A DNA stretch of 64,000 bases from Octopus vulgaris (lineage: Eukaryota), in NCBI GenBank assembly GCA_951406725.2, contig OX597830.1, positions 15,252,001-15,316,000 of the forward strand, given 5' to 3'. Below the pieces are notes generated by a model. It did no database searches. It was not told where the DNA came from and saw nothing but the letters and a program-made list of their open reading frames with translations. The first letter of the stretch is position 1; every line of letters begins with the position of its first letter. Below are positions 1 through 35,277 of this stretch, one piece after another. The translations under genes and the position numbers were made by a program.

Positions 1-2330
1 ACTGACAGTAGAACAGGAAAATCCCCATTTTCCTATGTCGAGGAGAGGATACGAACAACGGAGACCACATTGGTAGTTTTTGGCCTCTACTCCTGCTGAA
101 CGCTGGTATGGAGATTTTGGCCAAGGTGTAAGTAAAGATGGCACTTGTTGGGAAACTGATTAGTGATGCAAAGACATGCACTATTCCGAACAGATCTACC
201 CAGAGCAATGTCCACTTCATGTCAGATACCATAGAAATTGGATGAGGAACTTGGTAGTGAGGTACTTATCTTAGGGCAGTCGAGAGTTTTCGATTGGATT
301 CACCACCTATCCTTAGTGCCGGTCTTCACAACTGCTGGTTCTGGTCCCGCCTTCAGATGCTGGATTACTGCAATGTACAACGATTTCTGCTCGAGAATTA
401 GAACGAATGGTTACATATCGAAACCATTCAGCATGAATATTTCGATCCGTCAAGATTGTCATCCCTTATCTCTTCTGTATGTAACGGATTCCTGAACCGC
501 TACTACAAATGCTAGAGACATTGGGAGGTAACCCTGTTAACTAGGGTGAGGAAGATCTAACTTGACATATGCGGATGGCGATACAGTTGTAGTGTCAGAC
601 ACCAGGCGCATCCAAGTGATTGGCTCCGTTCTAAGGGAGTTCGAGGAAGTGGCAGAAACCAAAATTAAACATGAAATATCAGTGGATATGCAATGCAGTC
701 CCAGGTAAGGCAGGTGTCCCAGGTAAGACACGTCGCAGGGTGGCAGATAGACGGGGCAGTATATTTGCTCGATGTCTGATATGGTACGCGTCTCCAAGTG
801 CTATGTCACATATGGAAAAAAAAAAACTATGAAAAAAAACGCATCTGGCAAACGCCGCAATCCGGTCAGGCGGTAATATATGACGGAGGCGACGTGGGCG
901 TTCGCCGTCACTGCTCAACCTATTTGTCTACTACCCACAAGAGAGGACAAACAAGGACAGACATAGGTATTAAATCGATTATATCGACCCCAGTGCGTAA
1001 CTGGTACTTAATTTATCGACCCCGAAAGGATGAAAGGCAAAGTCGACCTCGGCGGAATTTGAACTCACAACGTAACGGCAGACGAAATACCGCTAAGAAT
1101 TTCGCCCGACGTGCTAACGGTTCTGCCAGCTCTCCGCCACTGCTCAAACATTTAGAGACAACTTTCTGTTGGTCCATTTCGGCGTGAGACTGGACACCCT
1201 ACACGTCACCTCGATCAGGTCCGATAGGCGTAGTTGAGGTGACGAGTAGGGTATCCAATCGCACACAGAAATGGACCAAAAGAAAGCTGGCTTTAAATGG
1301 TTGAGCAGCGGTGACGAACGCCTACATCGCCTCCATCATATATTACCGCCTGACCGGATTGCAGCGTTTGATTTTCTGCTTCATGTGGAAAAATCCGGCA
1401 CTCCATTTACTGTCAACATCCGAGGCATGCTGTGACTGATGATGCGCAAACATACGCCGAGGTTGCGACATCACCAGTCACTCTTTGACAGGGTATAATC
1501 ACCGTTTGTCAGATGTGGTTTTTTTTGGTTTTTTTGTCATAGTTCGACTCTTTCACAGAACGGCAGTCCTAGATAAAGAAAAGCCCGATTCCAGGCGTTT
1601 GGCATCTGGAATGTCGTTAAGCGCTCAAAATCCTCTACCAGTTGGGCCATGCGGTCACTGGAAGTTCAACGTTAGCGTTTTATAGAGGATTATTGGTGAG
1701 CAACAGTGACGACGTACTCGGGGAAACCCTGGACATCGACGAAAATGAAACCAGCTACTCTGCTTCGGAGGACTTTCGGGTTTGGACCGATAATTAATTT
1801 CCAGAAATCGATTACCAGTGCCACTGTGAAGGAACTCTACAAGCAAAGAAGTACCGTCAGCCGGGCACACGCAGGATGACTCGTTTTGCACGCGCTCGTC
1901 CAGTACCTAAACATTGCTGACTTGTGGACTTATGTCGAACACCAGATGCGTGAGAAGGAGAACCAGTCTTTGCTATTCTGGTGGCCTTAGCGAAAGAGTA
2001 TGTGTAGCAGGGTTAAAAGGGGTGAAGATAGACACCTTCCTATTTGGCCACACCCACATCAACTTTTTCCAAGTTTTACTTGAAAATGAAAGTAAGGGCG
2101 GCGAAGGATGTACTTCCTTCTTGCAAATTTGGAGAAACGTGGCTGAGAGTGGCAAGCATGAATCAAGGGAACTGGTATGCGTCTGTACATTAAGGGGAAG
2201 ATGGGTGAGGGCACTTGTCTTGAGGGTCAGGATGACCGTGGACCTCTTGGGCTTCCACGAACAACCATCTGAAGACTCTCTTTTGGGGGAAATATTTCCC
2301 GTTTGAGTTTTTTGTTCCTTTGTTTCTATT
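1..2330 (+). mobile_element. Decayed Tx1/L1-clade LINE ORF2 (RT to C-terminus), interrupted by an inverted duplication and a SINE
   Basis: Degenerate RT motifs in order: TCTIPNRSTQSNVHF (~173), GQSRVFDWIHH (cf. DQxKAFDRVxH), SIRQDCHPLSLLY (cf. VRQGCPLSPLLY), YADGDTVVVSD (cf. YADD), then EVTSRVSNRTQKWTKRKLALNG..AYIASIIYYRLT. Many stops and frameshifts. Confidence 0.8.
921..1135 (-). mobile_element. SINE family A (tRNA-like head, young tail)
   Basis: Matches the other family A copies; flanked by TSD-like cgtcactgctcaacc / cgccactgctcaaac. Confidence 0.85.
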
Positions 2331-5615: not shown

Positions 5616-7304
5616 CAACACTACAACACTCCACAGGCCTTAGACCATATCTATTTATTTCGCAAATGTTTAAATCCTGTACAACCTTAGACTCTTAAAC
5701 TCTCCACATCCACCCAACTAATTAACACTTAAAATTAATGCAGAACAATAAAAGAACATAAAGCATTATACACCAATTCCACCACCGTGGCCATCCAAAC
5801 ACCCCTTTCTTCACAGCCGCAATACATGTGAACGCACCACCCACACAATCACATAACAATACCTGCAACTATTGCACAAACACTGCACAAAACTACAATG
5901 ATATTTGTAACAATGACTCCTAAACACAAACTCATGAACCGCATAATAACTGCTACAAAGGATTACTCCAGCGGATCACGCACACCCTTGCTCAAGTTGA
6001 CGCATTACTACGAACTATAGAATGACGTTAGTTGCTGTGCATACTGGGCGTCTACCCCAAACATACAATTGCATCGACCTGGTTGCACTGACACCATACA
6101 CCGGATATGCTTCTCCTTTGTACGTCTGCTCTGGTGTGGACGAAAGCATTTTATATTTGTTGTTGAATATAATGATATGAATACAACGAAATATACAGTA
6201 ACGTTTGCCATATACAGTTTGGGGACCTTTATTCGTATTAACAATAGGCGTAGAATGGATCTGGACGCAACCTCAGAACGTGTCTTTCTCTCCACCCTTA
6301 CTCACTGCTTATACATCATCGACGCTGCACAAAATGCTTTATGCTCTATTCTCAATTATACATCAACTATATTAGAAGTGACATTGTGTCCGCCTAATGA
6401 TTCCGCTTATATGAGGCAACATTCAGTCACACCATATATGCAATGGCCAATTGGAAAACGGGAGCGACCGTCTACGAAAGAGATGTACTTAAAGCAACAA
6501 TGAGCTCACAAATGTATGAAAGCTCAAATTTATAGAAAGACATGCATGCATGTTCATGTATGCACCTATATGACCATGTCACAAACCCACAACACTCTCC
6601 AACATATATATATGAACACTATCTTCGTTATCTTACTTCCAGAGTATTATAACACTATCATGTCCATCTAGAAGGCTGGACGCCTGACGCAGGCGGCAAC
6701 ACACTCGACTTGATATTACAATACGCAAATACACATATAAAACTACTTATTCACATTTATTTAAATGCATCATACAAGCTCACATGCACACATATAAACT
6801 GGGGAATGCACCCAACACCAGTGCTAAATGCATAATCCATATCGTACACACGATATACTACCCATATATTTATGTAGAGATACTCCGGTACTATATTACT
6901 TCTGACATTTGCTTCAGAACGATGACACAAAAATACATTGCAAACAGTTCTTGTAGCTATGACAAATCACAAGAGAAACCTTCAATTATACACTGGCGGA
7001 ATGATTACTACTCGATAAATATATTTTCTCCTTTGTTACTAGTTCAAAATTGTTGACATCTCGTACTCTCCTTAATCTCACGAAATCTCGCCTTTAAATC
7101 TCGCCATTTAGACACCAGAGTTGTCAGCCATTGTTCACACTCCGATTGAATAACTGGCAATATGTTCGCACGAAGCCTATGGTAACAAACTACTAATTTT
7201 CTATTTAAAGTGTGTGTGTGTGCTGCGTACGCGTGCGCACACGTGTGTGTGTGTGTGTGTGTTTGTGCGTGTGTGTAGGGGTGTGTTTGTGTATGGGTGT
7301 GTAT

Positions 7305-7376
7305 ATACTGCTTCGGCACAACATATACTAAAATTGGAACAATGACATGCAAATTCATGAAGCGTTCCGTAATTTT
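7305..7376 (+). pseudogene. U6: U6 snRNA retro-pseudogene with a ~34-nt internal deletion
   Basis: gcttcggcacaacatatactaaaattggaac matches the U6 5' part; atgacatgcaaattcatgaagcgttccgtaatttt matches the U6 3' end; ACAGAGA box and AGC triad are missing. Confidence 0.92.
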
Positions 7377-7537
7377 CACTGCAGGTGCTCAAGCATGGCC
7401 ACAACCTTGGGGCTAAAACCTATAAAGGAAGAATAAAAGAAGAATAACCTACATATATAAATGTATATAAATGTGTGTGTGTGCGTATGTATGTATATGT
7501 ATATGAAAATATGTGTGTGTGCGTATGTATATGAAAA

Positions 7538-14131: not shown

Positions 14132-15642
14132 TTAGTTAGTTAGTTAGTTAATTTGGCTCAAAAGCAAATAGCAAGGCCATGTAGGGGGACATGGAGTTAA
14201 GTACAGGGTGGTGTTCATGTAAAGAGTTCAGGCCACTTGAGGTCCAGGGAGGGTTTGAACAAAGCGGTCGTCGGCATCTTCACCATCTCGTCTGGCAGCT
14301 TGTTCCACGGATCCGCAACCCGGACGGAGAAAGCTCCTCTCCTTCGATTGAGATGAAATCGTCGCAGGTAGAGCTTTTCGGAATGACCCCGCAGCCGACG
14401 CTCCGGAGCAGGAGTGAAGAACAGCTCTTTCGAGAGGTTACACTTCCCGCTTATGATGTTGTGGGCGAGAATGAGATCACCACGGCGGCGGCGTTTTTCA
14501 AGAGAATAAAGGTCGAGCGTCCTCAGCCTTTCTTCGTAGGACAAATTTTTGAGACCATGAACCATGCGGGTAGCCAGCCTCTGGACTCTTTCGAGATGCT
14601 GTATGTCTTTGAGGAGATAAGGAGAAAAGGCTTGAATCCCATACTCCAATATGGGTCTCACCAGCGTGACATAGAGTGACAGGAATATGGCTGCTGTGAG
14701 CATTCCGAATGACCGTCGAATCAAAAACAGAATTCCGCGCGCTTTGTTGGCAGCATGGACGCACTGGGCCGAAGGCGCAAAGGAGGAATCCACCAAGATA
14801 CCCAGGTCCTTTACCTGATCGGTCCTCTCCAGCAGCAGACGACCCGGCTCGAAATCAAGTTGAGTTGCAGGTGTAGAGCCGACAGGCAGATGACAGCACT
14901 TTGACACGTTCAGACACAGGTCCCAATCGTTAGACCACTTCCAAATTTGGTGGAGGCATCGACGAAGATCCTCTATACTACCGCGAGGAGCGACCAGTTT
15001 GATATCGTCGGCAAATAGAAGGGTGTGTTGCGTGAGGTCGTCGGGCAAGTCATTTATGAAGACTAAGAACAACAAGGGCCCAAGCACTGAACCTTGAGGC
15101 ACGCCACTGCTCGCACTGGAGACGTCGGACCGCGAACCATTAACTTGAACTTGGAAGGAGCGATCTGAGAGGAAGGCACCAACCCATCGTACAATATCCG
15201 GATGGAAACTATATGCTTGAAGCTTGACAAGTAGTAGGCGGTGGTTTACCGAGTCAAAAGCTTTGGCAAAGTCCAATAAAACGATGTCAACAGCATCACT
15301 ATCATCGAGGATGCGCGTCACCAATTCTTCCATTACTAGTAAGTTGGTCAAGCATGATCTCTTCGGCACGAAGCCGTGTTGGGAATCAGTGATCGAGGCT
15401 GTGTTTAGGAGGTGGAGCATCATACTTTTCTTAAGGATGGTTTCGAACATCTTGCTGATTATTGATGTAAGGGAAACCGGTCGGTAGTTAAGCGGGTCTT
15501 CGCGGCTCCCTTTCTTGAAAATTGGGCAGATTATCGCTGTTCTCCAGTCTGCAGGTATAACACCCGTCGCCAATGACATATTGAATAGTCGTGTCAAGGG
15601 CTCGCAGATGACCGGAGCCAACGCTTTGATAACCCGTGGGTG
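14132..15642 (-). mobile_element. 5'-truncated CR1/L2-clade LINE, young
   Basis: (TAAC)n tail at 14132-14150, short 3' UTR, open RT frame; homology stops at HPRVIKAL (15642). Confidence 0.95.
14215..15621 (-). CDS. Reverse transcriptase (partial LINE ORF2, no endonuclease domain, no true start)
   Basis: NYRPVSLTS, QHGFVPKRSC, DFAKAFDSVNH, GVPQGSVLGPLLF, LFADDIKL, VKDLGI, LSYEERL, RGHSEKL; 468 codons without a stop. Confidence 0.95.
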   Translation of the reverse strand: MAPVICEPLTRLFNMSLATGVIPADWRTAIICPIFKKGSREDPLNYRPVSLTSIISKMFETILKKSMMLHLLNTASITDSQHGFVPKRSCLTNLLVMEELVTRILDDSDAVDIVLLDFAKAFDSVNHRLLLVKLQAYSFHPDIVRWVGAFLSDRSFQVQVNGSRSDVSSASSGVPQGSVLGPLLFLVFINDLPDDLTQHTLLFADDIKLVAPRGSIEDLRRCLHQIWKWSNDWDLCLNVSKCCHLPVGSTPATQLDFEPGRLLLERTDQVKDLGILVDSSFAPSAQCVHAANKARGILFLIRRSFGMLTAAIFLSLYVTLVRPILEYGIQAFSPYLLKDIQHLERVQRLATRMVHGLKNLSYEERLRTLDLYSLEKRRRRGDLILAHNIISGKCNLSKELFFTPAPERRLRGHSEKLYLRRFHLNRRRGAFSVRVADPWNKLPDEMVKMPTTALFKPSLDLKWPELFT

Positions 15643-15837
15643 TAATTTTTAACTTGTTATTCTAACCCAGATTACCGATTAATTCTTTATTTACTCCTCT
15701 TCATATCATTTGTCGGCCATTTACTTTACAATTACGCTAGTCTAGAAATTTCGTTAAAGCTAGGTACACCATAAACCAAGCTTCGTGGATAGGTGAAAAA
15801 AATAAGAGCCGGCCATATTACTTTCAGCGATATTGCA

Positions 15838-17626: not shown

Positions 17627-19398
17627 AATATCAGCAACAAACATAAAGATACTTTGATATTATTAAAAAAGAAATAAAGAAATAATATAACCCTGAGTGT
17701 ATTTTCAACGGTGAAATCAAGTTCTCCGTTTACAATACACTCATATTTGTTTAGTTTTACTTATCAATCAGTGACAAGTATTAAGTATTAATCTAATGCT
17801 CTCATCGGTTGCAGTTCCTGAAAATATTTTGACATCCTGTCCTCAAATGTTTATATTGTCGTTTGCTTAACACTTGTACTAATTCCCTTTTATTTATTCC
17901 TTAATCTCTTTAAACGTATAATTGTTATCCTTATCTGTCAAATATCCCAGGAGTCATAATTGGCCATATTTCCCCTCTTACTGACTGTAATTTTGAGGAC
18001 AATGACAAGCAGCATAATCTTTACACTAATAGATCAGCAATGGATGAGACTGTTATAAAAGGTGAAGAAGAACCTCACGTGGTACAGGTATACAGTGCTA
18101 CTGCTGCTGCTACTGCTGCTGCTTGTTGTTGTTAAGCAACAAGGTGGGTAAGGGTGATTAGGTGATGGTCTAGGGCTTAGGGGCGGGAGACCCCAGACCT
18201 TGGAGAAAAAAGAAAAACTTTGGTCGTCTTGTTGTAGTCGAGGGCTCTTCATTGACGCCCGACACCACTGGGAGGTGGCCCTCGAAGTCACTGGAAATGG
18301 AGATCTCCAGGTCCGAATTCTTGGACAGCTGCTGCTGCTTAGTCAACATCTACCTGCTCTCCTATTCGGCTTTGATCAGGAAGACCTCAGATCAAAGGTA
18401 ATTCAGAATTGACAATTTCGACTTTATTCAGACAATATATTTAGGCCTACATTAAACAATGTGCCCCCTTTTTTTAAAGTAATGTAGGGTGTGGTTTGAG
18501 AAGAAATTGACTACTATTTCTTGCAGGTCGAGTGAGCTACATAGAGACTTCCTTGCTAGTTACAGCAGGCAGCGCAGATAGAACACTTCACGTGGTACAT
18601 CTAAATATAATAACTAACATTTATTACAGTATAAAAGGTATAATATATAATAATAAACAGTCAACAGCTAGTAATATGAATAGAGGTGCAACACTGAGAA
18701 GGAAGCTATAATGTTTCAAACATATATGGCCGTCGTCAACATGACCAATATCGAAATCACACAATCTAAGTAAAAATATCGATTTTTTTCCTTTTACTAC
18801 ACAGATGACTATTGATGTAGGAGAATAAAGTCAATTGATCCTAGTATATTACTTATTTTTATCGATCTAAGCAACGATCGATCGCAAGATAGGTAAAACT
18901 GAACCTAGAGAGACTTCAATACAGATCGGCGAAGTACTAAAGTTGATAGCGTCATCGTATCTGGGAACGTGCCCCGGCGTTTCGTCTTCCATTCATACAC
19001 ACGCTTCACGATTGATTCAAAGGTTATTTTCGCAATTATAGATGTTTATGTAACTGTTTTGTTCTTCGCCAAGATTTCATTCATGATTTCACAAGGGAAA
19101 AGAAACATGAAAGAAAATAAATGCGAGCATAAAAATCAAGAAGTAATTTAACAAAAATCACATTGTAGACTTTGCAAGATAGCTTCCAGCAACGACATTC
19201 TTGTTAAACTTGAATGACTGCTCTTGAAATAGGATTCAGCCGTACAGTTTGCTTGGAAGAATTTATCATTTACTGAGTCTTAAGCTACACTACACGTGTG
19301 TGGATTTTTCTTTTATAGCAGTAAAGACAATACACGTGTAAACATTAATTTCTAGTATTGTTAGTATTACTGGTTGGATAATATTGACATTAATGTAG

Positions 19399-20460
19399 AG
19401 CGGCGAGCTGGCAGAAACGTTAGCACGTCGGGCGAAATGCTGAGCAGTATTTCGTCTGCCGCTTCGTTCTGAGTTCAAATTCCGCCGAGACCGACTTTGC
19501 TTTCTATCCTTTCGGGGTCGATTAAATAAGTACCAGTTACGCACTGGGTCAATATAATCGACTTAATCTATTTGTCTGTCCTTGATTGGCCTCTCTGTGT
19601 TTAGCCCCTTGTGGGTAGTAAAGAAATGGGTAATCGACTTAATCCGTTTGTCTTCTCTGTGTTTAGCCCCTTGTGGGTAGTAAAGAAATAGGTATTTCGT
19701 CTGCCGCTACGTTCTGAGTTCAAATTCCGCCGAGGTCGACTTTGCCTTTCATCCTTTCGGGGTCGATTAAATAAGTACCAGTTACGCACTGGGGTCGATA
19801 TAATCGACTTAATCCGTGTGTCTGTCCTTGTTTGTCCATCCTGTGTGTAGCCCCTTGTAGGTAGTAAAGAAATAGGTATTTCGCCCCTCGCTAAGTTCTG
19901 AGTTGAAATTCTGCCGAGGTCGACTTTGCCTTTCATCCTTTCGGGGTCGATTAAATAAGTACCAGTTACGCACTGGATCAATATAATCGACTTAACCCCT
20001 TTGTCTGTTCTTGTTTGTTCCCTCTATGTGTTTAGCCCCTTGTGGGTAGTAAAGAGATAGGTATTTCGTCTGTCATTACGTTCTGGGTTCAAATTTCGCC
20101 GAGGTCGACTTTGCCTTTCATCCTTTCGGGGTCGATTAAATAAGTACCAGTTACGCACTGGGGTCAATATAATCGACTTAATCCGTGTGTCTGCCCTTGT
20201 TTGTCCCCTCTATGTGTAGCCCCTTGTGGGCAGTAAAGAAATAAGAATCATTAGCACACCGAGCGAAATGCTTAGCGGCATTTCGTCCGTCCTTACGTTC
20301 CGAGTTCAAATTACGCTGAAGTTGAATTTGCCTTTCGTGTTTTCGGTATCGATAAAATAAGTATCAGTTGAGCACAGGGGGGGTCGATATAATCGACTTA
20401 CCCCCTGCCCCCGCCTCCACCCCCGAAATTTCTGGCCTTGTGCCAAAATCTGAAACCAAT
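19399..20460 (+). mobile_element. SINE A head-to-tail multimer (six units)
   Basis: Restarts at 19629, 19691, 19875, 20060 and 20245; outer TSD-like aatattgacattaatgt (19380) / aatattggcattaacgt (20458). Confidence 0.92.
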
Positions 20461-21190
20461 ATTGGCATTAACGTTACCAAATTTATTCTGAGGAGGTGTC
20501 GATTTTCCATGTAAAATACCAGAATGATATCAGCAAAATTAAATTGGAAAATGAAACCCTTTCTGCGAAATGAGTAATTCTACTGAAATGTCAGGTAGGT
20601 TTACCACCATATACACACACACGCACACACACATATATAGATATATATATACAGTACACACTACACACATTCACATGCATAAACTCGCACACTAAGCACA
20701 CACATATATACAACAAAAACGCATGCGCACACATATTTCACGAAATATCTAGCAACATAAATTAACTGAGATTGGGTCCAATATATTAAACAGTAGTCTC
20801 AGTTTGCAGAATAGAGTGAACTAACAAAACAAGCAAAAACAAAAGATGAAAGTCTCCAGCAACACAGATTTCCGATAAATTAATAATTTAATGATCGTTC
20901 TAAATGAAGAGAATAGTTTTGGCATTATTTTCTTTTAATTTTGTTTTCCTTATGCGTTGCCAAATATTAAAAAGTGATTAAAAATAAACATTTTCTGAAA
21001 GCTGAAAATTTTTTTTCTGTTTATTTGATTCGGCATTATTTTATTTTCCCTCGAATTCATTAATTTATTTTTCTAATATAGAATAAAATTCTTCATAGCA
21101 ACGATGCGGTAAATAGCTGTACATAATAATCATAGTAAATGTCTCATCAAAAAGCTTTAATGCAAAGATGCAGTGGAATCTGTCTCCTGC

Positions 21191-21234
<44 letters not shown>

Positions 21235-21779
21235 ACCATCGTAATACTCAGATATTGCAGTATAACGGAGGATAAGCTACTCCGTTAGACACAGATCAAT
21301 TGTTACAAGAGGTGGGTGGGAGGGAGTGCTGATAGAGTTGGTAATATTGACAAATGATTGGAGATATTTATCTGTGATACGGATTAGGGTGAAATTTAAC
21401 CAAGAATAAACATCTCTAACTCACAGCAGACTAGAAAATATTCTATTGGCAGTCGAAGCTAAATCAGAACACGAATAGGAAAATTAAGACTAAAGGCTAT
21501 CAAATCAAGGCTTCGGTGGTTCAAATCCTTTGAGCAGCACTGTTCTTCGTCTAACATTAAGGTACTTCGTTTCCAACAACGCAGCTTGCATAGTTGTAAG
21601 TTGGTGACCAAGGAGAGTTGATTCCTTGCTCTAAGCACCGACAGCACTGTAAGATTAACGAGTGTTTGAGGAGCTCTCTTGCAGGGTTGGGTTTCAGTCC
21701 TTCCCAGCGTCTGTGTCCTAATACAATGGTTAATAGAGTGGCTATGTTTTCTGCTCTGTTACCAATAATCTGAAAGATA

Positions 21780-22070
21780 TATGGTTAAGAAGCACGCATT
21801 TCAACTACATGGTTTCGGGTTCAGTCCCACAGTGCGGCACCTTGGGCAAGTGTCCTGTTATAGAACCCGATCGACCAATGCCTTGTACGTAAATTTCGTC
21901 GAAGGAAACTGTGTGGAATCCTGCCATATATTTGTGTGCGTGTGTGTGTTTGTGTTTACTTCATCATCACACGACAGGACAACCGGCGTTGGCTGGTTTA
22001 CGTCCTCATGACTTGGCGGTTCGGTAAATGAGACCGACAGAATAAGTGCAATACTTAAAATAAGTACTTG
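21780..22070 (+). mobile_element. SINE family B (decayed)
   Basis: gggttcagtcccac..ggcaccttgggcaagtg core. Confidence 0.75.
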
Positions 22071-22103
22071 ATACATTTTGAATTAACGGTAAGATATTAC
22101 TAA

Positions 22104-22518
22104 GGCGGTTAGCTGGCAGAAACGTTTGCACGCTGGGCAAAATGCTTAGCGGAATTTCGTCTGTCGCTACGTTCTGAGTTCAAATTCCGCCGAGGTCGAC
22201 TTTGCCTTTCATCCTTTCGGGGTCGATAAATTAAGTACCAGTTACGCACTGGGGTCGATATAATCGACTTAATCCGTTCGTCTGTCCTTGTTTGTCCCCT
22301 CTATGTTTAGCCCCTTGTGGATAGTAAAGAAATAGGTATTTTGTCTGTCTTTATGTTCTGAGTTCAAATTCCGCCGAGGTCGACTTTGCCTTTCATCCTT
22401 TCGGGGTCGATAAACTAAGTACCAGTTACGCACTGGGGTCGATGTAATCGACTTAATCCCTTTGACTGTCCTTGTTTGTCCTCTCTGTGTTTAGCCCCTT
22501 GTGGGTAGTTAAGAAATA
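22104..22518 (+). mobile_element. SINE A dimer with perfect 16-bp TSD
   Basis: ggtaagatattactaa at 22088-22103 and 22519-22534; second unit restarts at ggtattt (22335). Confidence 0.95.
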
Positions 22519-23293
22519 GGTAAGATATTACTAACCAAACCAACGTAGGAGTCTGTAGAAATAACGACAAAAACTCCCTCGAACTATACCCTGGTGTATT
22601 GGATAAGGAAAGGACACGTTATATTGTGCTACGTGCAATATTGTTCTATGTATCAGGGGATGGTCACATTTGGAATGCATTTAATCACTGTTCTGCACAA
22701 TGAGTGCTCATTTAGGGCTAAGCAATGACAACAACAGCAACAACAACATTTAAACATGCTCATATATAATCAGGGAGATTTTGATTTTGAATTTTTCCGG
22801 TATACTCTCTCAAGTCAGCCAAAGACGGCAGAATTGTTGGAGCGTGAAACAAAATGGTGAGCGAGAATTTAATTACATTTTCATTTAAAATGTCGCTGAA
22901 ATCAATTTATATTTCATCCTTCCGGTACCGATAAAATAAACAGAATACTGCACTCAGTCACCGAGATTACATTTATTGACATTTATTGATGGAAGAAATG
23001 CAAAGTCGATCTCAGGCGGATTTGAACTGAGAACGGAGAGAGACAAAAGATACGGCGCTGAGCATCTTTGTATGCAAAGCTCTAGCGATTCTACATATCA
23101 GAGTTCCATCCGTAAATATAGGCCAAAAGGCGCAAAACAAACGTTTCTCATACGTTTGTCACAAGGTCGTACACGAGACTCATATATTGTCAAGATGCAA
23201 GATGAGGCAGGTAAGGTGGAGAGAAAGAGGAAAGGCGATTTACGTATATATAAATATATACAAACATATGTATATACAAATTACATGCGAACA

Positions 23294-25732: not shown

Positions 25733-25990
25733 AGCTATTGTCTTCTGCCTAAACCTTATGTTTAGCTATTGTTTTCTGCCTAAACCTCAACCTCATGCTT
25801 GAGCTATTGTTTTCTGCCTAAGCCTCTGGCTTGGGCTGTGGTTTTCTGCCTAAACTTCATGCTTGAGCCATTATTTTCTGCCTAAGCCTCTGGCTTGGGC
25901 TGTGATTTTCTGCCTAAACTTCATGCTTTAGCTATTGCTTTCTGCCTGAACCTGATGTTTGAGCTATTGTTTTCTGACTAAAATCTCATG
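25733..25990. repeat. Minisatellite, about 8 units of ~26-35 bp (gagctattgttttctgcctaaacctcatgctt)
   Basis: Recurrent ttctgccta core. Confidence 0.9.
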
Positions 25991-26121
25991 CCAAACTTTT
26001 GACCATAAATGAGTAGATATATTTGATGATTCGCTCATTCAGGTTCAGAATTACGTTAATCGTGTGTTTCGAGTATTCAGTGTCGCATATTGAACGTCTC
26101 AATATGTAAGCTGTTCTCAAA

Positions 26122-26580
26122 TGCGGCGAGCTGGCAGAAACGTTAGCACGCAGGGTGAAATGCGTAGCCGTATTTCGTCTGTCTTTACGTTCTGAGTTCA
26201 AATTCCACCGAGGTCAACTTTGCCTTTCATCCTTTCGGGGTCGATAAATTAAGCACCTATTTCTTTACTACCCACAAGTATCTAAACACAGAGCGGACAA
26301 ACAAGGACAAACAAACGGATTAAATCGATTATATCGATCCCAGTGCGTAACTGGTACTTATTTAATCGACCCCGAAAGGATGAAAGGCAAAGTCGACCTC
26401 GGCGGAATTTGAACTCAGAACGTAGCGGCAGACGAAATACCGCTGAGCATTTCGCCCGGCGGGCTAATGATCCTACCAGCTCGCCGCCTTAAATTAAGTA
26501 CCAGTTATGTACTGAAGTCGATCTAATCGACTGCCCACCAAAAAAAAATTTCGGACCTTGTGCCTAGAGTGGAAAATAAT
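26122..26580 (+). mobile_element. SINE A with a nested antisense SINE A (26258-26489)
   Basis: Outer TSD aatatgtaagctgttc (26101, 26578); inner TSD taaattaag(c/t)acc (26245, 26490). Confidence 0.95.
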
Positions 26581-31075: not shown

Positions 31076-31520
31076 GGTGGCGAGCTGGCAGAAGCATTAG
31101 CACGCCGGGCGAAATGCTTAGCGGTATCTCGTCTGCCGCTACGTTCTGAGTTCAAATTCCGCCAAGGTCGACTTTTGTCCTCTCTGTATTTAGCCCCTTG
31201 TGGGTAGTAAAGAATTAGGTATTTCGTCTGCCGCTAACTTCTGAGTTCAAATCGACTTAATCCCTTTCTTTGTCTCGTCTACGTTTAGCCCCCTGTGGGC
31301 AATAAAGAAATAAATATATGAGGTGAGATTAAGGCAGCGAACTGGCAGAGTCGTTAGCGCGTCGGGCAAAATGCTTAGCAGTATTTCATTCCTCTTTACG
31401 TCATCAGTTCAAATTCTACCGACATCGATAAAATAAGTACCATTTGAATTTCGGGGGTCGATGTATTTGACTTATCCCCTTCCTCCAAATTCCTGGCTTT
31501 GTGTCAAAATTTGAAACCAA
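31076..31520 (+). mobile_element. Young SINE A dimer with internal deletions (31076-31312) followed by an old SINE A (31333-31520)
   Basis: Target motif aatat(n)aggtgaga present at 31058, 31313 and 31519. Confidence 0.9.
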
Positions 31521-32314: not shown

Positions 32315-32531
32315 GGGCAGTGAGCTGGCAGAACCGTTAGCACGCCGGGCGAAATGCGTAGCCGTTACGTTCTGAGTTCAAATTCCGCCGAGGTCGACTT
32401 TGCCTTTCATCCTTTCGGGGTCGATAAATTAAGTACCAGTTACGCACTGGGGTCGACGTAATCGACTTAATCCATTTGTCTGTCCTTGTTTGTCCCCTCT
32501 GTGTTTAGCCCCTTGTGAGCAATAAAGAAAC
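32315..32531 (+). mobile_element. SINE family A
   Basis: Head to tail; TSD-like tatatgtgtatgcttat / tatatatgtatgattat. Confidence 0.9.
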
Positions 32532-34840: not shown

Positions 34841-35277
34841 TATTTCTTTATTGCCCACAAAAGGCCAAACATAGAGGGGACAAACAAGGACAGACAAAGG
34901 GATTAAGTCGATTATATCGACCCCAGTGCGTAATTGGTACTTATCTAACCGACCGCGAAAGGATGAAAGGCAAAGTCAACCTCGGCGGAATTTGAACTCA
35001 AAACATAACGGCAGACGAAATACCGCTAAGCATTTCGCCCGGCGCGCTAACGTTTCTTATTTCTTTACTGCCCACAAGGGGCTAAACACAGAGGGGACAA
35101 ACAAAGATTAAGTCGATTACATCGACCCCAGTGCGTAACTGGTACTTAATTTATCGACCCCAAAAGGATGAAAGGCAAAGTCGACCTCGGGAGAATTTGA
35201 ACTCAGAACGTAACGGCAGACGAAATGCCGATAAGCATTTCGCCCGGAGCGCTAACGTTTCGGCCAGCTCCCCGCCT
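34841..35277 (-). mobile_element. SINE A dimer inserted at the head of the C-related SINE
   Basis: TSD agctacgtgcatttct (34825) / agttacgtgcttttct (35279); internal junction at 35056/35057. Confidence 0.92.

Follow-up and report, generated by a model that had tools for sequence, protein, structure and literature searches.

A lineage-specific 3' extension as the probable guide for target choice, and possible self-homing, in a high-copy SINE

The window analysed here (the whole stretch of 64,000 nt, G000:C17:15252001-15316000) carries multimers and monomers of a 230-bp element, family A, whose reference copy lies at 22105-22334 (Table 1). Positions 1-165 of this reference (ref) are common to family A and the older sister families B1 and B2, while the tails of the three differ. 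Family A is a short, non-coding, high-copy dispersed repeat of the kind expected for a tRNA-derived SINE: exact tails in the searched genome (2.8 Gb, 227 contigs) number 78,873 for the T-type and 34,142 for the C-type. Target-site duplications (TSDs) were found for 64 of 125 monomers and are of variable length (median 15 nt), as in tRNA-derived SINEs. Box-like motifs (Pol III A and B) were recognized by eye at ref ~10-22 and ~72-84; ARAGORN returned 0 hits, and Rfam gave a chance match alone (E=2.8). TTTT is absent from the consensus, which makes Pol III read-through plausible. The motif CCTTGTG is common to all three tails and lies in a short inverted repeat 12-13 nt ahead of the end point; folding predicts a minimum-energy structure other than this hairpin and, with z-scores from 0.19 to -1.01, lends it no support. 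The core may resemble the Meta domain (66 bp, following the head in MetaSINEs), and the repeat motifs of the window are presumably reminiscent of octopus SINEs.

Table 1. Family A elements and associated target-site copies in the window (ref, position in the family A reference).
Positions	Strand	Feature	Remarks
921..1137	-	A monomer	3' junction GGTTGAG; upstream target copy GTTTGAG
19380..19396	+	Upstream target-site copy of whole array, 17 nt	Starts AATATT, as do sister-family insertions
19400..19628	+	Full-length A unit, tRNA-like head, ref 1-229	
19629..19690	+	Short A unit, restart near ref 155 (GGTAATCG)	
19691..20243	+	Three A units lacking the head (ref 47-230 in each case, 184 bp)	GGTATTT starts at 19691, 19875, 20060
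20244..20457	+	Terminal unit from ref 14 (AGAATC), sister-family B2 tail	81% to A reference
20458..20474	+	Downstream target-site copy of array	
22088..22103	+	Upstream target-site copy starting GGT, 16 nt	Identical to 22519-22534
22104..22518	+	A dimer: unit 1-230 and unit 47-230, junction 22335	First unit is the reference
26258..26487	-	A monomer, antisense inside sister-family copy at GGTA site	Target duplication present
31077..31312	+	A dimer, internal deletions, junction 31218	Last tail C-type; AAT-class target
32317..32530	+	A monomer, C-type tail then AT run	
34841..35275	-	A dimer, restart at ref 14 (AGAAAC)	AGA-class target duplication

A preliminary description of this DNA had proposed that A tails of one variant are followed by GGT both within the SINE's own sequence and at foreign targets. 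All the junctions it cited are present: GGTATTT stands directly 3' of the tail at 19691, 19875, 20060, 22335 and 31218, GGTAATCG at 19629, GGTGCTTAA at 26257 (minus) and GGTAAGAT at 22519, the last with an exact 16-nt upstream copy, and AGAA follows the tail at 20244, 35057 and 34840. One foreign example fails as a TSD starting with GGT, namely 920 (minus), where the upstream target copy is GTTTGAGCAGTG, with T and not G as its second base. The two target-site copies that enclose the array at 19380-20474 differ at 2 of 17 nt, and its terminal unit is likely an older resident element. Antisense insertions into SINE bodies, at a GGTAC site opposite ref 127-135, occur in three sampled sequences (L313, L327 and L338) besides the window copy at 26258-26487; such insertions account for 3 of 29 youngest-subfamily elements. 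The window also contains a tandem repeat unrelated to the SINE (25748-25991, period 32/64).

Genome-wide, AGGT follows 47,803 of the 78,873 exact T-type tails (60.6%), and AGGTATTTYR, which marks a new unit beginning inside the element's own head at position 47, follows 31,036 (39.3%); reversed-pattern controls gave 0-2 matches. The tails followed by AGGT restart at 47 in 65% of cases, almost all of them seamlessly. More detailed counts come from a sample with 342 tails in 191 sequences (1.48 Mb in all), each chosen around an exact tail match; 43 of 385 tails had been excluded as not ending AAAGAAAT. The set is not random, since most of it lies in the first 10 Mb of contig C1 and the best matches elsewhere were added. 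Of the 342 tails, 136 run into position 47 and 9 into position 14, and 181 were classed as standing on unrelated flank. T-type tails (n=214) are followed by AGGT 145 times, by ATAT 13 times and by AAGAA twice. The corresponding counts for C-type tails (n=118) are ATAT 31, AGGT 24, AAGA 20, AAAT/AATT 17 and other 26. The preliminary description had C-type tails followed mostly by GAA(A), a rule that does not hold, as AAGAA follows just 16 of the 118; GAA(A) is a minority class, and the TAT and AAT classes also exist but were missing from that description. A third type of self-junction was seen in two C-type arrays (L139 and L159, at C1:4442223-4442845 and near 6888400), which restart near ref 75-81 after an ATATATT junction.

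We examined whether these bases belong to the target by setting the TSD register from the bases beyond the first six only, which avoids circularity. The register could be anchored for 63 of 147 tails that have a head and stand on foreign flank, and for the other 84 it could not. Among the 21 cases of the GGT class, 17 have an upstream target copy whose own first bases are GGT, against a background of 1.2%; this agrees with the earlier claim that GGT belongs to the target and not just to the consensus. The start also matches the class in 12 of 16 TAT, 4 of 6 AAT and 2 of 5 AGA cases. Per-base matches of the 21 GGT-class targets to GGTATTTCG are 18, 20, 20, 14, 15, 9, 3, 3 and 2; the match between extension and target spans 3-6 nt and fades after 5-6 nt. 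Target class tracks tail lineage within this sample, which upholds the earlier expectation of enrichment specific to tail variants: GGT targets occur with 14 of 30 T tails and 4 of 31 C tails (p=0.005), and AGA plus AAT targets with 0 of 30 and 8 of 31, respectively (p=0.005). Furthermore, in six sequences (L035, L061, L066, L149, L153 and L184) the junction holds extension bases that are missing from the target, which implies that the template held them. Directly ahead of the target start stands a pyrimidine in 45 of 63 cases, probably through a nuclease preference. That an endonuclease cutting preference alone, or mere membership of GGT in the consensus, accounts for the pattern is very improbable: the pyrimidine bias agrees with it, but a single family has four target classes that go with tail lineage, the upstream copies contain GGT, and some junctions hold bases that the target lacks.

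We therefore consider guide-like priming by the RNA 3' end at a matching target to be likely, as judged from these genomic junctions. The DNA signature of R1-type read-through target-primed reverse transcription (i.e. flank-derived 3' bases that match the target and are sometimes inserted) is present. The read-through overhang proposed earlier as a guide stands in so far as the extension matches the first target bases, but its supposed origin in a multimer is not required; the guide could derive from the downstream flank of any source. A long templated overhang was rejected, as no RNA-derived sequence up to positions 60-62 of the second unit was found in chimeras.

Could the units of the arrays have arisen next to each other? 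Local DNA duplication or unequal crossing-over, as suggested for other tandem SINEs, would make array units each other's nearest relatives. Of 108 units, only 20 have their closest relative within the array they belong to, in agreement with the earlier expectation that multimers are not local duplicates; the remaining 88 are not, and duplication can yield neither A+B chimeras with a single fixed junction nor GGT in foreign targets. Those 20 units, the smaller distance within arrays (0.084) than between them (0.103), the identity of some neighbours and a long young array at C5:135.57 Mb speak for some local duplication. As the main route it is refuted by the unit relationships, and we give it very little credence in that role, while it remains a minor route. 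In A-only arrays the divergence of first and last units (0.031 vs 0.037) does not differ significantly (p=0.16).

The youngest subfamily (3,325 exact copies) is the upstream partner at restart junctions 1,388 times and the downstream partner 392 times; of 30 downstream partners checked, 17 are preceded by their own subfamily. Mixed pairs with the youngest subfamily ahead or behind number roughly 1,170 and 170, a polarity of ~7:1. Five first units of the youngest subfamily were each joined to a different partner. The notion that this subfamily does not form arrays was dropped, as ~40% of its copies are followed by GGTATTT (1,388 vs 3,325, counted with slightly different markers). An estimated ~16% of its junctions are to itself, compared with its ~1% share of sites, which shows that they are not random in-place insertions. 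Together with frequent mosaic units, this excess implies that duplication, conversion or multimer copying also act. Four such mosaics (L352, L354, L355 and L362) combine a youngest-subfamily head region with the tail of another lineage, pointing to conversion or joins deep within the unit. Two further tandem structures were observed: (i) a single run with at least 13 youngest-subfamily junctions, a nascent SINE-derived satellite (G000:C5:135573272-135575646), and (ii) a sister-family array with six B1 tails at 101-bp spacing (G000:C1:15779649-15780175).

Joins between families are informative about age. A+B1 chimeras have 1,883 exact matches genome-wide, and an A unit stands ahead of 7 of 28 unselected B1 tails. 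Head divergence in a set of 63 chimeras is 0.065, close to that of A monomers (0.066) and about half that of B1 monomers (0.135); no head could be located for 32 of 120 B1 tails. The first body of the chimeras has diverged by 0.041 and the B body by 0.077, the B part is the older one in 12 of 14 paired chimeras (p=0.005), and the A-type base at position 42 is found in 18 of 63 chimera heads vs 0 of 16 B1 monomers. The B bodies have at most four derived changes in common across 1,953 pairs. The chimeras are thus young A heads joined to old, independently diverged sister-family bodies. Mismatches between TSD copies do not differ significantly among chimeras (43/599, 0.072), A monomers (55/978, 0.056) and B1 monomers (7/77, 0.091). 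A sample test for loss of the target ('immunity') gave CG/TG/CA counts of 57/5/25 for monomers vs 65/6/7 for array-first units; this apparent excess of monomers without GGT was rejected after two independent listings, counted by hand, gave 76/8/15 for array-first units and 79/8/12 for GGT monomers.

The preliminary description further held that self-targeting builds the multimers. Insertions at 47 do exist: nested copies with an old head or unit upstream were found with a target duplication in L072, L202, L206 and L217 and without one in L003. Their frequency is another matter. Given ~310,000-350,000 GGTATT sites in heads or at junctions and the target profile found here, the self-insertion expected from a short overhang by itself is ~3%, ~20-fold below what is observed, and only the classical nested insertions (4 of 63 chimeras, plus L072 and L003) lie near this value. 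As 40-65% is seen, and the arrays are mostly seamless with a young head, either a homology-dependent second step or the copying of multimer RNA is needed.

A mechanism of the first kind may be outlined as follows. Pol III would read past the end of the SINE, whose consensus lacks TTTT, and the read-through RNA would be expected to carry flank beyond AAAGAAAUA. A candidate LINE enzyme would start 12-13 nt past the common CCTTGTG motif, and the RNA end would pair over 3-6 nt with the nicked target and prime reverse transcription. The end point is fixed, and target starts match the extensions GGTAT, TATAT, AATAT and AGAA. The target start would then be inherited as the downstream flank of the new copy and serve as the guide of its daughters, so that target choice would be passed on. 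At a resident head the cDNA would meet at least 46 nt of homology beside the nick, pair with that head and replace it at position 47; homology would lift success ~20-fold and give a seamless join, and where it is lacking an ordinary nested insertion would result. A minority of units would come from local duplication or multimer copying. The data examined hold no direct support for wholesale head replacement. On balance, we lean towards guided priming with array growth mainly inside older resident copies, at 47 and with replacement of the head. The stronger proposal, that the SINE homes into its own family by a heritable, flank-encoded RNA guide and that a young head overwrites the old promoter head, has in our judgement slightly less than an even chance.

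The second possibility accepts the short guide but takes seamless arrays to be one-step copies of read-through multimer or chimera RNAs from many nested sources. This would account for young heads, old bodies, polarity and a single TSD without replacement of heads; primary nested copies exist (the 4 of 63 chimeras) near the short-guide rate, the consensus has no internal TTTT, and the youngest subfamily is joined to itself more often than its share of sites predicts. However, the B bodies and last units are star-like and lack sibling groups, so that ~1,000 similar sources would be required, and the partners of the five first units mentioned above are all different. Moreover, the site at 19400 appears to be occupied in a diverged organism, and the TSD mismatches lean towards an old insertion, although not significantly. 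One-step copying from ~1,000 sources would agree with most of what was observed; we regard this possibility as unlikely, while giving it real weight. Alternatively, the reverse transcriptase could jump in mid-insertion from position 47 to the GGUAU overhang of another SINE RNA. R2 performs end-to-end template jumping, and such jumps would yield seamless arrays, young heads and unrelated units, with mosaic units being common. They do not predict a strong age polarity, in contrast to the ~7:1 seen; most first templates would have to come from old B loci; no reason was found for a stop at 47; and the orthologue of 19400 should be empty. This makes template jumping improbable.

Evidence on the history of the 19400 locus comes from other sequencing runs. 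A contig from a diverged organism (run X13) extends from 18800 to 19425 and enters the SINE head at 19400, with 28 differences in 624 nt from the window and a depth of 5; it covers the left junction alone, and a narrower second comparison at 19400 did not recover it. In this run the depth of A tails is ~7% of that in two other runs of similar single-copy depth, while that of B2 tails is similar, with contig depth being a rough hint of copy number only. This one contig, at its left junction, suggests that the locus was already occupied before the A burst. The contigs break at the repeat and so do not resolve monomer from multimer alleles. At 21244-22126 of the window, three other runs have contigs that depart from its sequence at identical positions, among them six sites in 21644-21688, which points to a divergent haplotype or a local assembly difference.

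We also looked for the partner LINE. Among 12 RT ORF ends in the 2 Mb sampled, no LINE-borne match to the SINE tails was found; the sole tail match near them is a separate B1 copy ~630 nt downstream. In the window, 14218-15648 (minus) contains a 477-aa ORF with an RVT_1 domain (E=2e-32) and terminates with a (TAAC)n tail; L176 has almost the same 3' end, so this is likely a young LINE family, and it has no significant match to the SINE tails. On the minus strand of L124 (~7300-7420), a LINE RT ORF ends in a tail containing (GAGTAAAA)n. A different SINE family, present in L005, has a similar tail, and the two probably form a LINE-SINE pair.

Several elements of this reading have counterparts in known systems. 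Target pairing by the RNA 3' end has been described for L1, CR1, L2, RTE, the I factor, R1Bm and R2Ol (PMC6007223), and Ichiyanagi & Okada 2008, cited in the same paper, belongs to the work on 3' microhomology priming. As in family A, the 3' ends of L1, CR1, L2, RTE and RTE-related SINEs overlap the target start, pairing has been proposed, and the first TSD base correlates with the 3' repeat (PMC6007223). Their overlaps, as described in that source, come from fixed, terminal, microsatellite-like repeats and span 1-2 bases in the animal cases, whereas that of family A is a non-repeat flank of 3-6 nt that is lineage-specific and matches the SINE's own head. The TSDs of RTE-mobilised SINEs are mostly at most 13 bp, with a T-stretch ~10 nt upstream; the family A median is 15 nt, which may be inflated by end matches.

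R1 offers a further comparison. Its RNAs extend into downstream flank, which may pair with the target and in some cases is inserted off-target (PMC2718515), upstream homology gives precise 5' joins and re-insertion gives tandem arrays (PMC2718515; for R1Bm and SART1Bm, PMC7265360), and its 14-bp staggered cut can be counted as a further likeness (PMC2718515; PMC7265360). By contrast, R1 as described there is autonomous, has a site-specific nuclease and a single rDNA target, and forms arrays separated by TSDs. Family A is non-coding and dispersed, with over half of the sampled tails on unrelated flank, and its favoured site in its own head yields headless units and cross-family chimeras.

Tandem SINEs with one headed unit, headless units and a single TSD pair, as here, are known as TSD-(SINE)n-TSD in the blood clam (PMC11481361) and as satellites in squamates (PMC10702118). 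The tandem share is ~3% of clam SINEs, compared with 39% of T-type tails here, and internal clam units are also 3'-truncated, unlike those here (PMC11481361). Both papers favour unequal recombination, and the squamate paper also raises same-locus insertion (PMC11481361; PMC10702118). Unlike in the recombination account given there, most family A units are not closest relatives, and the units of a SINE-derived satellite would be. The MetaSINE superfamily resembles family A in having a tRNA-like head, a common core and interchangeable tails (PMC4824008).

RNA-target pairing is itself a known principle (R1, RTE and L2). Alu can insert into Alu tails and replace older copies; it does so through a generic poly(A) tail, unlike the single internal head position of family A. 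The novelty lies in how a dispersed SINE combines lineage-specific, non-repeat guides, a single internal site and young heads on old bodies. We found no description of this pattern in the open-licence PMC and bioRxiv literature.

The internal site at 47 has been used tens of thousands of times and across families. This provides a natural experiment on RNA-target pairing and 5' homology in target-primed reverse transcription, where work on site choice and success has so far centred on engineered R2 and a small number of site-specific elements. For tandem SINE arrays, which are usually credited to recombination, it adds a route through retrotransposition. If the arrays grew in place, SINE loci would not be fixed one-time markers, since heads would be replaced and ages reset, and repeat dating, subfamily trees and presence/absence phylogenies would be affected. 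If the homing proposal is true, tens of thousands of old copies, including those of sister families, would be turned into fresh multimeric sources with the same guide, a self-reinforcing loop.
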